Assembly (NCBI RefSeq): GCF_050320075.1
Contig: NZ_CP190018.1
Direction: 5' to 3' (one strand)
From: Escherichia coli
GTDB lineage: Bacteria; Pseudomonadota; Gammaproteobacteria; Enterobacterales; Enterobacteriaceae
Length of the DNA: 64,000 nucleotides
The position numbers were made by a program, and so were the translations under genes. The notes under the pieces are model-generated. The model did no database searches. It was not told where the DNA came from and saw only the letters and a program-made list of their open reading frames with translations. The first letter of the stretch is position 1. Each line of letters starts with the position of its first letter. Positions 31,562-56,373 of this stretch are shown here, piece by piece.

Positions 31562-33640
31562 TTAAATCAATGCCGATTTATCAATTCCCAGTCGCTTCAT
31601 CCGTGACAGCAGGGTCGTGCGTTTCAGCCCCAGACGTTGCGCAGCGCCTTTAGGCCCGGCAACCACGCCGTTGGTTTCTTTCAGCACGCGAACAATCAAC
31701 TGATATTCATCTTCGCCCTCCTGGGCGACAACCGTTGCGGCAGGCGGCGTTTCAGGCTCCGGTAAAGCAATATCTGGCAGTGACAGCTGCAGCACGTTGC
31801 CGCGTGTTAGCAATACCGCGCGCTCAATGACGTTTTCCAGTTCGCGTACGTTACCCGGCCACTCCATGTTGCTCAAGGTGCGCAGCGTCTCGGCAGGAAT
31901 GCTGTCGATATTGCGCCCGAGACGACGGGCAATTTTGAAGGTAAAGGCTTTCGCCAGCAGCGGAATATCTTCCGGACGCTCGCGTAGTGGCGGCAGGTGG
32001 ATCGGGAATACATTCAGGCGGTAATAGAGATCGCTACGGAACTCACGGTCGGCGACCATTTTTTTCAGATCGCGGTTAGTCGCGGCAATTAAACGTACGT
32101 CCGTCTGAATGATTTTGTTGCTGCCGAGGCGTTCAAACTCCTGTTCCTGTAATACACGCAGCAACTTCGGCTGTAACTCCAGTGGCATATCGCCCACTTC
32201 GTCGAGGAACAGGGAGCTTTTATCCGCCAGTTCAAAACGACCAATGCGCTGGGCGCTGGCACCGGTAAAAGCCCCACGCTCATGACCAAACAGATCGCTC
32301 TCCAGCAATCCGGCAGGCATTGCCGCGCAGTTCATTTTTACCATGCGGCGATTATTACGCCCACTGAGATTATGGATCGCGCGGGCAATCAGCTCTTTAC
32401 CTGTACCAGTTTCACCGAGAATCAGCACGGTACTGTCGCTTTGCGCCACCATTTCAACTTGTTTAAGTACGCTGTACATGGCTTCGCTGCGGCCAATAAT
32501 CTCGCCAAATTCACTATCAACATTGTTGAGCTGCTCGGTCAGGGCGAGGTTTTCATCAACCAGCCGTTCTTTCAGACGATGGATTTCCTGATAGGCGAGG
32601 GCGTTATCGACAGCGATTGCCACACGTTCGGTAATCTGGCGCAGTAAATTCAGATTGGTAGTGGTAAACACTTTCTCTTCGCATTGCGCCAGTTTCAGCA
32701 CGCCCAGCATGGTGTCGCCAGACATCAGCGGTAACAGGCACAAGGTTTGAATCTGGTTGCCCCAGGTGTCGAACAACATGCGTTCATAGGGGGCTAAATC
32801 GTCCCGCTCGTGGAGATTAATCAGCAGCATCTCTTTGCTTTTGAACACGCGTTCGGTGAGGGTTCCGGCTTCATCGACTTCGCTCTGTTCGTGGGCGGGA
32901 TGCTGTTTATCAAGATAGTGAGTGGAGTAGATGTTGAGTTTGTTTTTACGGTGGCTGCGTAAGACGATGCTGATATCGTCAATGTCGAAGTAGTAATGGA
33001 TTTCTTTGGCGACTTCGCTGACCAGTTCGTCCATATCCAGGCGGGAAAGCACCGCGTTGGTAATGGCAACCAGGATGCGGAAGTTATCGCGCTCCCGGCA
33101 TAACAACTCATAGTCGACATTATTGACGACGCGGCTCTGGATTTGTTCGGTGACGACAGAAACGATCTGCGTAAATGTTTGCAGACGATTGAACTCTTTT
33201 TCGCTCCAGGGGCGATCGTCATAACGAATAAATTCACAGCCACCAAAAATATGCCCTTCCGCCGCCAGTGGCATCAGGCAATAGTGACCAAATTTGGGGT
33301 ATAGCCCACCTGCGGCCAGCTGCGGCCAGGTTTCACAAAATTCTTCGTAACTGCAATGCAGCGTATCAGGGCGCGACAAAATGCTGCGTACCGGACCGTG
33401 TGCCAGAACAGTTTCGTCTTCATATTTAATGGGGGTGTCTTTTTCACGCGATGCGTAATAAGACGCACGTTGAGTCTGCGCTTGCCACAACACAATAGCC
33501 GCGTTGTCGGCGAGCGCAGAACGCTTTACCAGTTGCGAAAGAGCCTCACACAGCGAGGCCAGATCGGGCTGCTGCAATAGTGTCCGAGTGATGTCGAACA
33601 ACCCTTGTTGTCCGAGATCACTCATCGGTGTATATGACAT
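31562..33640 (-). CDS. fhlA: Formate hydrogenlyase transcriptional activator FhlA (sigma54-dependent)
   Basis: 692 aa from MSYTPMSDLGQQ; GAF domains, AAA+ sigma54-interaction motif GETGTGKE and GAFTGA. Confidence 0.96.
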   Translation of the reverse strand: MSYTPMSDLGQQGLFDITRTLLQQPDLASLCEALSQLVKRSALADNAAIVLWQAQTQRASYYASREKDTPIKYEDETVLAHGPVRSILSRPDTLHCSYEEFCETWPQLAAGGLYPKFGHYCLMPLAAEGHIFGGCEFIRYDDRPWSEKEFNRLQTFTQIVSVVTEQIQSRVVNNVDYELLCRERDNFRILVAITNAVLSRLDMDELVSEVAKEIHYYFDIDDISIVLRSHRKNKLNIYSTHYLDKQHPAHEQSEVDEAGTLTERVFKSKEMLLINLHERDDLAPYERMLFDTWGNQIQTLCLLPLMSGDTMLGVLKLAQCEEKVFTTTNLNLLRQITERVAIAVDNALAYQEIHRLKERLVDENLALTEQLNNVDSEFGEIIGRSEAMYSVLKQVEMVAQSDSTVLILGETGTGKELIARAIHNLSGRNNRRMVKMNCAAMPAGLLESDLFGHERGAFTGASAQRIGRFELADKSSLFLDEVGDMPLELQPKLLRVLQEQEFERLGSNKIIQTDVRLIAATNRDLKKMVADREFRSDLYYRLNVFPIHLPPLRERPEDIPLLAKAFTFKIARRLGRNIDSIPAETLRTLSNMEWPGNVRELENVIERAVLLTRGNVLQLSLPDIALPEPETPPAATVVAQEGEDEYQLIVRVLKETNGVVAGPKGAAQRLGLKRTTLLSRMKRLGIDKSALI

Positions 33641-36114: not shown

Positions 36115-36977
36115 CGCTGTGTCTCCAGCCAGTTCAGCCACTGGTCCATCCCTTCGCCGCTGGTGGCGGAAATAAGGATGATTTCAATTTCTGGATTGAC
36201 TTCGCGGGCGCAGGCGATGCACTTCTCAACGTCAAAGTTGAGATACGGCAGCAAGTCAACTTTGTTGAGCAGCATCAGCGAAGCTGCGGCAAACATATGC
36301 GGATATTTCAGCGGTTTGTCTTCACCTTCGGTAACGGAAAGCACCGCCACTTTGTGTTTTTCACCGAGATCGAAGCTGGCCGGGCACACGAGGTTGCCGA
36401 CGTTTTCGATAAACAGAATACCGTTATCGTCCAGTGGCAGGCGCGGTGCGGCGTCGGCAATCATCTGTGCGTCAAGATGGCAGCCTTTACCGGTATTCAC
36501 CTGAATCGCTGGTGTGCCGGTAGCGCGAATGCGCGCGGCATCGTTCACGGTTTGCTGGTCGCCTTCAATAACCGCGCACGGAACGCTGTCTTTCAGGCGC
36601 ATTAAGGTTTCCGTCAGCAGGGTGGTTTTACCGGAACCAGGGCTGGAAACCAGGTTGAGCACCAGTTGCTTGCGGGCAGCAAAGCGCGCGCGGTTGCGTT
36701 CAGCCAGACGGTTATTTTTGTCCAGCACGTCAATTTCGACTTCCAGCATCCGACGCTGGCTCATGCCCGGCGCGTGAGTACCCGCTTCGCCATGACCGTA
36801 ATGCAGATCGCCTTCTTCAGTCTGGCTGGGGGTAAATTCAGGCGCTTTAATGCCGGTGATTTTCATCTTCGGGCGTGCCGCCGGGGCAAATGGCGCGCTA
36901 CGAAACGCGGAATGAGGGTTATGTTCATCACCCTCGATATACAGGTTGCCTTCACCGCAACCGCATGTTGTACACAT
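36105..36977 (-). CDS. hypB: Hydrogenase nickel incorporation GTPase HypB
   Basis: 290 aa, [11 protein letters not shown]-terminus, His-rich region, GTPase motifs. Confidence 0.95.
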
Positions 36978-36980
36978 CGC

Positions 36981-37331
36981 TCACTCCTGGTCTATTTCTA
37001 TCCGCCGAATCTGTAAACCGTCGTCTGCCACAATCTGTAGCATGTCACCATGACACTGTGGACAGCGGCGGACGCGCTGGGTCAGTAGCGTCACATACTG
37101 TTGGCATGTTTCACACCAGCATTCGGCCTCTTGTTCTTCGAGGTGCAGTTTACAACCTTCCGCCACGCTGCCGCGGCAAACCAGATCAAAACAAAAGGCA
37201 AGAGAGCTGGTTTCGACACAAGAAAATGCGCCAATTTTGAGCCAGACCCCAGTTACGCGTTTTGCGCCGTGTTTTGCGGCCTGCTGTTCGATCAATTCCA
37301 GTGCCCGTTGGCAGAGGGTTATTTCGTGCAT
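36981..37331 (-). CDS. hypA: Hydrogenase nickel insertion protein HypA
   Basis: 116 aa from MHEITLCQRAL; CxxC...CxxC zinc site. Confidence 0.93.
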   Translation of the reverse strand: MHEITLCQRALELIEQQAAKHGAKRVTGVWLKIGAFSCVETSSLAFCFDLVCRGSVAEGCKLHLEEQEAECWCETCQQYVTLLTQRVRRCPQCHGDMLQIVADDGLQIRRIEIDQE

Positions 37332-37361
37332 ATCGCCTCCCATTAACTATTGCCAGCTACA

Positions 37362-37377
37362 AGCAATAATTGTGCCA
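37362..37377 (-). promoter_or_regulatory. Candidate sigma54 promoter for hypA
   Basis: Minus-strand reading TGGCAC-AATTA-TTGCT (GG-N10-GC), about 30 nt upstream of hypA start. Confidence 0.6.
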
Positions 37378-37490
37378 GTGTTGATTATCCCTGCGGTGAA
37401 TAATGTCGATGATGTCGAAATGACACGTCGACACGGCGACGAAATTCATCTTTATCTTAAAAATCTGTTTCATAACAATGAATTAAAAGT

Positions 37491-37506
37491 TGGCACAGAA
37501 AATGCT
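37491..37506 (+). promoter_or_regulatory. Candidate sigma54 promoter for hycA
   Basis: TGGCAC-AGAAA-ATGCT (GG-N10-GC), about 37 nt upstream of hycA ATG. Confidence 0.6.
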
Positions 37507-37542
37507 TAAAGCTGGCATCTCTGTTAAACGGGTAACCTGACA

Positions 37543-38004
37543 ATGACTATTTGGGAAATAAGCGAGAAAGCCGATTACATCGCACAGCGGCATCGTCGCC
37601 TACAGGACCAGTGGCACATCTACTGCAATTCGCTGGTTCAGGGGATCACGTTATCGAAAGCGCGCCTGCATCACGCCATGAGCTGCGCGCCGGACAAAGA
37701 ACTCTGTTTCGTCCTTTTTGAACATTTTCGCATTTACGTCACCCTGGCGGATGGCTTTAACAGCCACACCATCGAGTATTACGTCGAAACAAAAGATGGT
37801 GAAGACAAACAGCGGATTGCGCAGGCGCAACTGAGCATTGACGGCATGATTGATGGCAAGGTCAACATCCGCGATCGCGAACAGGTTCTGGAACACTATC
37901 TCGAAAAAATCGCTGGCGTTTACGACAGCTTATACACCGCCATTGAAAACAATGTGCCGGTGAATTTAAGCCAACTGGTAAAGGGACAAAGCCCGGCAGC
38001 ATGA
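37543..38004 (+). CDS. hycA: Formate hydrogenlyase regulatory protein HycA
   Basis: 153 aa, MTIWEISEKADYIAQRHRRLQ... Confidence 0.95.
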   Translation: MTIWEISEKADYIAQRHRRLQDQWHIYCNSLVQGITLSKARLHHAMSCAPDKELCFVLFEHFRIYVTLADGFNSHTIEYYVETKDGEDKQRIAQAQLSIDGMIDGKVNIRDREQVLEHYLEKIAGVYDSLYTAIENNVPVNLSQLVKGQSPAA

Positions 38005-38128
38005 GCTGAGGCTTTGCCCGTTTTGCAGGCGTTACGCCTGTTTGGGGATGGGCGTGTCGATGAGTGTCGAAAATGACATTTCATCGGCATGTTTTCGTCA
38101 AAAATGACAATCACCTGAGGAATGCCTG

Positions 38129-38740: not shown

Positions 38741-40563
38741 GCGCAATTTCCCTGATCAATAGTGGCGTGGCGTGGTTTGCCGCCGCCGCTGTTCTGGCAT
38801 TTCTCTTTTCTTTTCAAAAGGCGCTAAGCGGCTGGATAGCCGGAATTGGCGGCGCGGTGGGTAGCCTGTATACGGCAGCCGCGGGCTTCACTGTGCTGAC
38901 TGGTGCGGTTGGCGTGAGCGGTGCGCTGTCGCTGGTAAGCTACGATGTGCAAATCTCTCCGCTTAACGCGATTTGGCTGATTACGCTCGGCCTGTGCGGT
39001 CTGTTTGTCAGCCTCTACAACATTGACTGGCATCGCCACGCGCAGGTGAAATGCAACGGCTTGCAGATCAATATGTTGATGGCTGCCGCCGTCTGTGCCG
39101 TCATCGCCAGCAACCTCGGCATGTTCGTGGTAATGGCCGAAATCATGGCCCTGTGTGCGGTGTTCCTCACCAGCAACAGCAAAGAGGGCAAACTGTGGTT
39201 TGCGCTGGGGCGTCTTGGCACTCTGCTGCTGGCGATTGCCTGCTGGCTGCTGTGGCAGCGTTACGGCACGCTGGATCTGCGCCTGCTGGATATGCGTATG
39301 CAACAGCTGCCGCTCGGTTCCGATATCTGGCTGCTCGGTGTGATTGGCTTTGGCCTGCTGGCCGGGATTATTCCGCTGCACGGCTGGGTGCCGCAGGCAC
39401 ATGCTAACGCCTCTGCGCCAGCTGCCGCGTTGTTTTCTACGGTAGTCATGAAAATTGGCCTGCTGGGCATTTTAACCCTGTCGCTGCTGGGCGGTAATGC
39501 ACCGCTGTGGTGGGGGATCGCGCTGCTGGTGCTCGGCATGATCACCGCGTTCGTCGGTGGTCTGTATGCGTTGATGGAACACAACATCCAGCGCCTGCTG
39601 GCTTACCACACCCTGGAGAATATCGGCATTATCCTGCTGGGGCTGGGCGCTGGCGTAACGGGTATCGCGCTCGAACAACCGGCGCTGATTGCTCTTGGCC
39701 TGGTCGGTGGTCTGTACCATCTGCTTAACCATAGCCTGTTCAAAAGCGTACTGTTCCTCGGGGCGGGGAGCGTCTGGTTCCGTACCGGTCATCGCGATAT
39801 CGAAAAACTCGGTGGTATTGGCAAGAAAATGCCGGTTATCTCCATCGCCATGTTAGTCGGGCTGATGGCAATGGCTGCGTTGCCGCCGCTGAACGGGTTT
39901 GCCGGGGAATGGGTTATCTATCAATCCTTCTTCAAACTGAGCAATAGTGGCGCGTTTGTTGCCCGTCTGCTGGGGCCGCTGCTCGCAGTGGGTCTGGCAA
40001 TTACCGGTGCGCTGGCGGTGATGTGTATGGCGAAAGTCTATGGCGTCACGTTCCTCGGCGCGCCGCGTACCAAAGAAGCCGAAAACGCCACCAGTGCGCC
40101 GCTCCTGATGAGCGTAAGCGTGGTGGCACTGGCGATTTGCTGCGTAATTGGCGGTGTTGCTGCGCCGTGGCTGCTGCCGATGCTCTCTGCTGCTGTACCT
40201 CTGCCGCTGGAGCCTGCTAACACCACCGTTTCTCAACCCATGATCACGTTGCTGCTGATTGCCTGCCCGCTGCTGCCATTCATCATTATGGCGATTTGCA
40301 AAGGCGATCGTTTGCCGTCGCGTTCCCGCGGCGCGGCCTGGGTGTGCGGCTACGACCATGAAAAATCAATGGTGATTACTGCTCACGGTTTTGCCATGCC
40401 GGTGAAACAGGCGTTTGCGCCGGTGCTGAAACTGCGCAAATGGCTGAATCCGGTGTCGCTGGTACCGGGCTGGCAGTGCGAGGGGAGTGCGTTGCTGTTC
40501 CGCCGGATGGCGCTGGTTGAACTGGCGGTACTGGTGGTGATTATTGTTTCACGAGGAGCCTGA
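38737..40563 (+). CDS. hycC: FHL membrane subunit HycC
   Basis: 608 aa polytopic membrane protein (NuoL/M/N-like). Confidence 0.95.
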   Translation: MSAISLINSGVAWFAAAAVLAFLFSFQKALSGWIAGIGGAVGSLYTAAAGFTVLTGAVGVSGALSLVSYDVQISPLNAIWLITLGLCGLFVSLYNIDWHRHAQVKCNGLQINMLMAAAVCAVIASNLGMFVVMAEIMALCAVFLTSNSKEGKLWFALGRLGTLLLAIACWLLWQRYGTLDLRLLDMRMQQLPLGSDIWLLGVIGFGLLAGIIPLHGWVPQAHANASAPAAALFSTVVMKIGLLGILTLSLLGGNAPLWWGIALLVLGMITAFVGGLYALMEHNIQRLLAYHTLENIGIILLGLGAGVTGIALEQPALIALGLVGGLYHLLNHSLFKSVLFLGAGSVWFRTGHRDIEKLGGIGKKMPVISIAMLVGLMAMAALPPLNGFAGEWVIYQSFFKLSNSGAFVARLLGPLLAVGLAITGALAVMCMAKVYGVTFLGAPRTKEAENATSAPLLMSVSVVALAICCVIGGVAAPWLLPMLSAAVPLPLEPANTTVSQPMITLLLIACPLLPFIIMAICKGDRLPSRSRGAAWVCGYDHEKSMVITAHGFAMPVKQAFAPVLKLRKWLNPVSLVPGWQCEGSALLFRRMALVELAVLVVIIVSRGA

Positions 40564-50585: not shown

Positions 50586-50686
50586 TCCTGCATTACAGAA
50601 TTTAATTTCTTTAAATAACAGTAAATTAAAAACTGGCATGATTTGTGAATGTATCGGCGCATTAACTGTCATTGCTGGAGAATTTG

Positions 50687-56301: not shown

Positions 56302-56317
56302 TGCAGATTGCGTGCCA
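56302..56317 (-). promoter_or_regulatory. sigma54 promoter of norVW
   Basis: Minus-strand TGGCAC-GCAAT-CTGCA (GG-N10-GC) about 45 nt upstream of norV start. Confidence 0.7.
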
Positions 56318-56373
56318 GTTTTTTATCTGATTGTTTTTACTCTATAAATAAAATTATGCTCATTAATGAGTAG

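Follow-up and report, generated by a model that had tools for sequence, protein, structure and literature searches.

Results

The hypA–hycA spacer and its two sigma-54 elements

The DNA analysed here, hereafter the window, is a 64,000-nucleotide stretch of Escherichia coli (NCBI RefSeq assembly GCF_050320075.1, contig NZ_CP190018.1). Positions 37332–37542, as read from the sequence, are the whole 211-bp non-coding spacer between two divergent genes: hypA on the minus strand, whose true start is the MHEITLCQ opening at 37331, and hycA on the plus strand, whose ATG lies at 37543 and whose product, the anti-activator of FhlA, opens with MTIWEISEK. The features of the locus are as follows:

31562–33640, minus strand: fhlA, gene of the cognate sigma-54 enhancer-binding activator, downstream of hypE (Pfam PF00158, PF01590 and PF02954; NCBIfam NF011958 equivalog)
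36981–37331, minus strand: hypA coding sequence, first gene of the hyp transcription unit (NCBIfam NF002979 HypA, 241.8 bits; RefSeq annotation of a 100%-identical record)
37336–37340, minus strand: hypA Shine-Dalgarno sequence, GGAGG on the minus strand (sequence reading; GCCTCC at least 95% conserved in 81 intergenic regions)
37362–37378, minus strand: hyp sigma-54 promoter CTGGCACAATTATTGCT, with the −24 GG at 37375–76 and the −12 GC at 37363–64
37400–37448, either strand: enhancer (upstream activating) block, the putative FhlA-binding region (repeats, conservation, half-sites, likeness to fdhF/hydN/hyfA)
37449–37472, either strand: A/T-rich variable spacer (alignment of six E. coli alleles and E. 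albertii; identity bands of a 66-bp query)
37473–37485, plus strand: IHF-like core TAACAATGAATTA, directly upstream of the hyc −24 element (one mismatch to WATCAANNNNTTR)
37490–37506, plus strand: hyc sigma-54 promoter TTGGCACAGAAAATGCT, with the −24 GG at 37492–93 and the −12 GC at 37504–05
37517–37542, plus strand: hycA leader, with a block CATCTCTGTTAAACGGGTAACCTGAC (37515–37541) conserved across many genera (footprint of 81 spacers)
37543–38004, plus strand: hycA, formate hydrogenlyase regulator, first hyc gene (NCBIfam NF007567, 301 bits; annotation)

A sequence-only reading of this DNA had placed a minus-strand TGGCAC-N5-TTGCT at 37362–37377 and a plus-strand TGGCAC-N5-ATGCT at 37491–37506, and had assigned both to the GG-N10-GC architecture of sigma-54 promoters. 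Both motifs prove exact to the base, and in each the GG and GC lie exactly 10 nt apart. The hyp motif TGGCACAATTATTGCT (37377→37362, minus strand) reads TGGCAC-AATTA-TTGCT and has no mismatch to TGGCAC-N5-TTGCW, and the hyc motif TGGCACAGAAAATGCT (37491→37506, plus strand) reads TGGCAC-AGAAA-ATGCT and has one, an A for T before the GC. Their TGG starts are 114 bp apart (37491 − 37377). Bonocora et al, 2015 (PMC4591121) set the start 19 bp beyond the motif centre; by this convention, the predicted hyp start is at ~37351, 20 nt before the hypA ATG, and the predicted hyc start at ~37517, 26 nt before the hycA ATG.

The window also carries the gene for the activator. The fhlA ORF combines GAF, AAA+ sigma-54 interaction (Sigma54_activat) and HTH_8 domains and matches NF011958 with 1546 bits from residue 13 of the ORF; K-12-based tables give the transcription unit as hypABCDE-fhlA (PMC8743547). 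The gene for sigma-54 itself, rpoN, lies outside the 64-kb window.

The two motifs compared with chance and with sigma-70 promoters

A weight matrix was derived from 38 intergenic sigma-54 ChIP-seq motifs (Bonocora et al, 2015; PMC4591121), omitting hycA, hypA, norV and hydN because all four lie within the 64-kb window. With this matrix the hyp site scores 21.2 bits, the top of ~128,000 window positions, and 2 Mb of random DNA contained no hit of this quality. At 15.5 bits, the hyc site is the fourth-best in the window; since this is no better than the typical best of a random 64-kb window (mean 16.0 bits), the hyc motif is unconvincing by score alone.

This score lends something to the reading in which the motifs are chance matches and hyp and hyc are transcribed from ordinary sigma-70 promoters in the spacer, and so does one sigma-70-like match, with 9/12 positions, at 37343–37370. 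That match is weak, however, and is the only one found in a sigma-70 scan of the spacer, against 0.8 expected from shuffles. Position also speaks against chance: among the ~195 correctly oriented spacer positions, a match of at least 15.5 bits is expected only 1–2 × 10^−3 times. The pattern TGGCAC-N6-TGCT occurs twice in the 64 kb, both times in the hypA–hycA spacer, against 0.15 occurrences expected, a count of two being reached in 0/100 shuffles. Furthermore, Myers et al, 2013 found no sigma-70 peak at hyc (PMC3688515). An Rfam scan of 37000–38100 returned no family, and only a sub-threshold chance match to a microRNA.

Published surveys point to the same sites. Table 1 of Bonocora et al, 2015 (PMC4591121) lists OS27 for hycA (TTGGCACAAAAAATGCT, fold above threshold 91, start 26 nt from the gene) and OS28 for hypA (CTGGCACAATTATTGCT, fold above threshold 201, start 20 nt from the gene), the latter having both the highest fold above threshold and the highest matrix score (14.09) of the table. 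Both are flagged 'C', experimentally confirmed in EcoCyc; the compatibility of the predicted elements with mapped start sites therefore rests on the EcoCyc 'confirmed' flag as relayed by these authors. Zhao et al, 2010 give the same sequences at −52 (hyc) and −46 (hyp) from the start codons (PMC2831329), exactly the offsets found in the window, and report expression altered by rpoN deletion and overexpression. A genomic-SELEX peak of the sigma-54 holoenzyme lies in the hycA/hypA spacer (Shimada et al, 2021; PMC8743547), and in Salmonella both sites were recovered by ChIP-chip with the same 114-bp motif spacing (Samuels et al, 2013; PMC3844500), the sigma-54-dependent transcripts, 26-fold for hyc and 5.6-fold for hyp, being assigned to FhlA. 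Formate- and FhlA-dependent induction is stated in the secondary literature (including PMC3844500 and PMC4987338). For the occupancy by sigma-54, the dependence on sigma-54 and FhlA and the input of IHF we thus rely here on the literature, which for sigma-54 concerns K-12 and Salmonella. ChIP-seq, SELEX and ChIP-chip all lead to these exact sites, against a chance origin, and, with the arrays and the conservation described below, they support the FhlA-dependent divergent transcription of hyp and hyc that the sequence-only reading had invoked.

Conservation of the divergent arrangement

A scan for HycA with one genome per species gave 80 loci from ~20 genera of Enterobacteriaceae. In all 80, hypA lies divergently upstream of hycA and both −24/−12 elements are present; the hyc element starts 50–53 nt before the hycA ATG, and the hyp element 44–50 nt before the hypA ATG, with a single locus at 58. 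Footprinting of 81 distinct spacers delimited six conserved blocks, namely the hypA Shine-Dalgarno sequence, the hyp promoter, a central block, an A/T-rich tract, the hyc promoter and the hycA leader. Within the species, a 611-bp query found the hypA–hycA junction in 5425/5426 complete E. coli genomes, with at least 99% identity in 4348 records; the 611 bp are 100% identical to strain CFSAN061763, in which the flanks are annotated as hypA and hycA. The earlier description of the locus as conserved and well described is borne out by these 80/80 loci and by the presence of both sites in several published sigma-54 surveys. Fixed offsets in every locus are a further argument against chance matches, and the sigma-70 reading, to which we give next to no probability, is effectively already refuted.

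Two side observations concern sequences adjoining the promoters. The hycA leader block is conserved beyond what a weak ribosome-binding site would appear to require and has no Rfam match. The segments 37351–37377 and 37491–37517 form a 27-nt imperfect inverted repeat (78% complementary), in which both promoters run on as GCTT-N3-AGCTGGCA to a second CTGGCA at each predicted start. As this repeat is conserved in Escherichia, partly in Citrobacter and not across genera, we do not treat it as functional.

A conserved enhancer block between the promoters

The central block, at 37400–37448, contains tandem ATAATGTCG/ATGATGTCG and GACACGTC/GACACGGC repeats, a dyad TGTCGAAATGACA (37413–37425), GTCGAC and CGTCG-N6-CGACG. 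Its cross-genus conserved core (37403–37430) reads ATGTCGA-N3-TG(T/A)CGAAATGACA(C/T)GTCG, also written ATGTCGA-N3-TGxCGAAATGACAyGTCG, and TGTCG-N4-GACA occurs a single time in the 64-kb window, inside this block. The 16-bp FhlA consensus CATTTCGTACGAAATG of Leonhartsberger et al, 2000, in the form quoted in PMC4987338, has no match within three mismatches anywhere in the spacer, so that the case for the enhancer was built on half-sites and conservation only. The block holds two half-sites that match at 7 of 8 positions, TCGAAATG (37415–22) and ACGAAATT (37439–46), separated by 24 bp; note that the half-site word is not enriched across the 64-kb window. That FhlA binds this block and acts from it on both promoters is our inference from the block's position, its conservation and its resemblance to related regions, and not from a consensus match.

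A 'terminator-like' hairpin at 37426–37441 was set aside: it is the CGTCG-N6-CGACG dyad of the enhancer, and such hairpins are no more frequent than chance (0.9 expected). In Klebsiella and Raoultella (L037, L040, L044, L059 and L064), the enhancer core carries a 12-bp insertion, e.g. TGTCGACGCCCCGGGGCTGTCATCGACATGTCG, which aligns to window position 37418/37419 and splits the TGxCGAAATGACA dyad, the overall helical phase being kept.

Spacing and helical phase of the enhancer

In the window the block extends from about −69 to −117 relative to the predicted hyc start and from about −49 to −97 relative to the predicted hyp start. Across relatives, the promoter-to-promoter spacing falls into classes of 92 bp (3 loci), 102–103 bp (19 loci) and 112–116 bp (59 loci). 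The enhancer core lies 70.5–72.5 or 81.5–83.5 bp from the predicted hyp start and 71.5, 82.5–85.5 or 93.5–94.5 bp from the predicted hyc start, i.e. insertions and deletions on either side come in steps of ~10.5 bp. At a 10.5-bp period the Rayleigh R is 0.93 for hyp and 0.84 for hyc, with p ~0.01 for each side when only distinct distances are counted, in a small and phylogenetically dependent sample. Such phasing would be expected of an enhancer that has to point towards the two closed complexes alike, and it is compatible with a single conserved block activating both promoters.

Separate enhancers could also be envisaged, with the central block serving hyc only and the hyp enhancer elsewhere, for instance inside hycA at ~37703–37745. 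There the sequence TTTCGTC...TTTCGCATTTACGTCAC resembles the fdhF upstream region at the word level. FhlA binding within hycA is also said to have been reported, by Schlensog et al. 1994, which we count on this side. However, in 81 hycA genes synonymous-site variability peaks at codons 54–62 (normalised entropy 0.8–0.86 against a gene mean of 0.61), and synonymous constraint is confined to the first ~7 codons; because variability is highest there, 37703–37745 holds no conserved DNA element, and a second enhancer inside hycA is unsupported by synonymous-site conservation in these genes. The central block, moreover, stands at an enhancer-type distance and in helical phase for both starts. We therefore consider separate enhancers improbable and retain a single shared block.

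Reported IHF, FNR and ModE inputs

Directly upstream of the hyc −24 element, the IHF-like core of the window occupies the same alignment columns as the cross-genus majority sequence AATCAATAAATTA, so that most genera carry a perfect IHF core there. As a pattern in the 64-kb window, the IHF-like core is no better than chance. Secondary literature names IHF among the activators of hyc and hyp (PMC2636881), and we regard the core as the putative IHF site. ModE is given as a secondary activator of hyc (PMC2636881, PMC3149613), and FNR-dependent expression is stated for hyp (PMC3149613).

The FNR input bears on the relative importance of the two sites. It could be that only the hyc site matters physiologically, the hyp site being a strong but mostly idle dock for sigma-54 and hyp being expressed chiefly from an FNR-dependent promoter inside hypA. 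The hyp site has the top ChIP-seq occupancy in K-12 (201), yet hypA is only 1.3-fold down in the rpoN deletion (−1.3-fold; PMC2831329); the stated FNR dependence points the same way, as does an FNR ChIP-seq summit assigned to hyc (2,848,688 in U00096.2; PMC3688515), which maps ~19 bp inside hypA, near window position 37312. No FNR box (TTGAT-N4-ATCAA within two mismatches) was found inside hypA, the nearest matches being at 36265–36278 in hypB and at 37469–37482 in the spacer. Against an idle hyp site stand the 5.6-fold rise of Salmonella hypABCDE with a constitutive activator (PMC3844500), the experimental confirmation of the hypA sigma-54 promoter according to EcoCyc (PMC4591121), the constant position of the hyp motif, which all but one of the 80 loci place 44–50 nt before the hypA ATG, and the helical phase that the enhancer keeps to this motif. 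In addition, hypA lies upstream of any such internal promoter and would therefore need the hyp promoter of the spacer. Taken together, the Salmonella induction, the strict conservation and the confirmation in EcoCyc weigh more than the evidence for an idle site; we judge this possibility very unlikely and keep both sites as working promoters.

A variable patch within Escherichia

The same locus in K-12 MG1655 has the 211-bp spacer length and the start-codon offsets of the window, and its promoter pair is that of EcoCyc/RegulonDB, Lutz et al. 1990 and OS27/OS28 of Bonocora et al, 2015. No difference falls in the hyp motif, the enhancer block, either leader or the coding sequence on the flanks; K-12 differs from the window by five single bases, at 37455, 37467, 37471, 37480 and 37498. 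The last of these, a G in the window and an A in K-12, falls in the non-consensus spacer of the hyc element and is the sole promoter difference.

When six alleles of E. coli are aligned with E. albertii, nearly all differences fall in 37449–37480, with promoters, enhancer, leaders and flanking codons almost invariant. This patch of ~30 bp, made up of the variable spacer and the start of the IHF-like core, is the only fast-evolving part of the region within Escherichia. A 66-bp query (37445–37510) against 5426 records gave at least 99% identity in 286, 90–95% in 4705 and 80–90% in 412, so that the enhancer-to-promoter segment of the window is a minority allele.

Within the patch, the bases C at 37471 and G at 37480 mirror each other and complete a perfect dyad, TTCAT-AACA-ATGAA (37469–37482), where K-12 has TTAAT-AACA-ATAAA. 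The dyad overlaps the IHF-like core and is two mismatches from an FNR box, at the critical G/C positions; it may be a coincidence.

Other sigma-54-like sites in the window

Three further sites of the window correspond to entries of Bonocora et al, 2015:

39947–39963, plus strand: intragenic hycC site GTGGCGCGTTTGTTGCC (IS31)
50633–50649, plus strand: hydN promoter CTGGCATGATTTGTGAA (OS26)
56302–56318, minus strand: norV promoter motif CTGGCACGCAATCTGCA, 18.1 bits (OS25)

The hydN promoter has a TGTCAT/TGTCGATGACA repeat cluster ~60–100 bp upstream. One more sigma-54-like motif, GTGGCACATCTACTGCA, lies inside hycA in the sense direction, 69 nt into the gene (37611–37627, plus strand), and scores 16.1 bits with the matrix, slightly above the real hyc promoter. 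We rejected it as a promoter. The conserved W-[HRQ]-x-Y-C codons of hycA account for it as a codon by-product; about one species in four uses TGT for the Cys, which destroys the −12 GC, and synonymous variability at this place is average among the 81 hycA genes. The motif is also absent from the K-12 ChIP-seq tables though K-12 is identical there, and these tables resolved neighbouring sites 128 bp apart (PMC4591121).

Discussion

The 211-bp spacer is almost certainly the control region of the E. coli formate regulon, with two back-to-back sigma-54 promoters, a putative FhlA enhancer between them and probable IHF assistance on the hyc side. Direct observations of the present analysis comprise the motifs with their statistics, spacing and conservation, as well as a conserved enhancer block and an fhlA gene in the window. 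As a textbook hyp/hyc divergent sigma-54 control region, the locus is already known. To our knowledge the pair is among the earliest described divergent sigma-54 promoters and has been found again by every genome-wide sigma-54 study; the primary start-site mapping of the hyp and hyc promoters is reportedly that of Lutz et al. 1990.

In the proposed mechanism, the hyp promoter would drive hypABCDE-fhlA leftward and the hyc promoter hycABCDEFGHI rightward, sigma-54 RNA polymerase waiting on each as a closed complex. FhlA, the formate-sensing AAA+ activator, would bind the TGTCG/CGACA-rich enhancer at 37400–37448, contact the polymerase by DNA looping and hydrolyse ATP, whereupon the complex would open; the IHF-type bend site next to the hyc promoter would aid the loop on the hyc side. 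Since fhlA belongs to the hyp unit, leftward transcription supplies the activator, and the first product of rightward transcription is its anti-activator, HycA: the hyp transcript, on reaching fhlA, would close a positive feedback, and the hyc transcript, which starts with hycA, a negative one.

The other FhlA-dependent promoters, fdhF, hydN-hypF and hyfA, likewise have a −24/−12 element 20–40 nt before the gene, and TGTCG/CGACA or CGTCA/TGACG clusters lie ~85–130 bp upstream of fdhF and hyfA (in K-12) and of hydN (in the window), as at hyc/hyp. The spacing of these repeats differs between members and no single fixed pattern fits all. At hyc/hyp, unlike at fdhF, hydN and hyfA, the single conserved enhancer block identified is located between two divergent promoters. 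The zraP/zraSR locus also has back-to-back −24/−12 elements, ~150 bp apart around an enhancer region (Table 1 of Bonocora et al, 2015 includes zraP and zraS, whose motif centres are separated by 154 bp; PMC4591121). It answers another signal through another activator, ZraR, and the likeness is drawn from that table alone.

Placed to the base from raw sequence, the two promoters make this locus a positive control. What the analysis adds is small: the ~10.5-bp quantisation of insertions and deletions on both sides of the enhancer, within-species variation concentrated in one patch of the spacer, and the lack of a conserved enhancer or promoter inside hycA. These additions leave the established picture unchanged and could guide hydrogen-production engineering or studies of enhancer geometry. 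More speculatively, and we think it unlikely though worth stating, the conserved block in phase with both promoters could act as an allocation switch that splits FhlA activation, with the alleles of 37449–37480 tuning the split and the formate hydrogenlyase output. If this were true, FhlA activation would be divided between a positive-feedback arm (hyp-fhlA) and a negative-feedback arm (the hycA-led hyc operon), and the distinct patch alleles across E. coli lineages would tune natural formate hydrogenlyase output.
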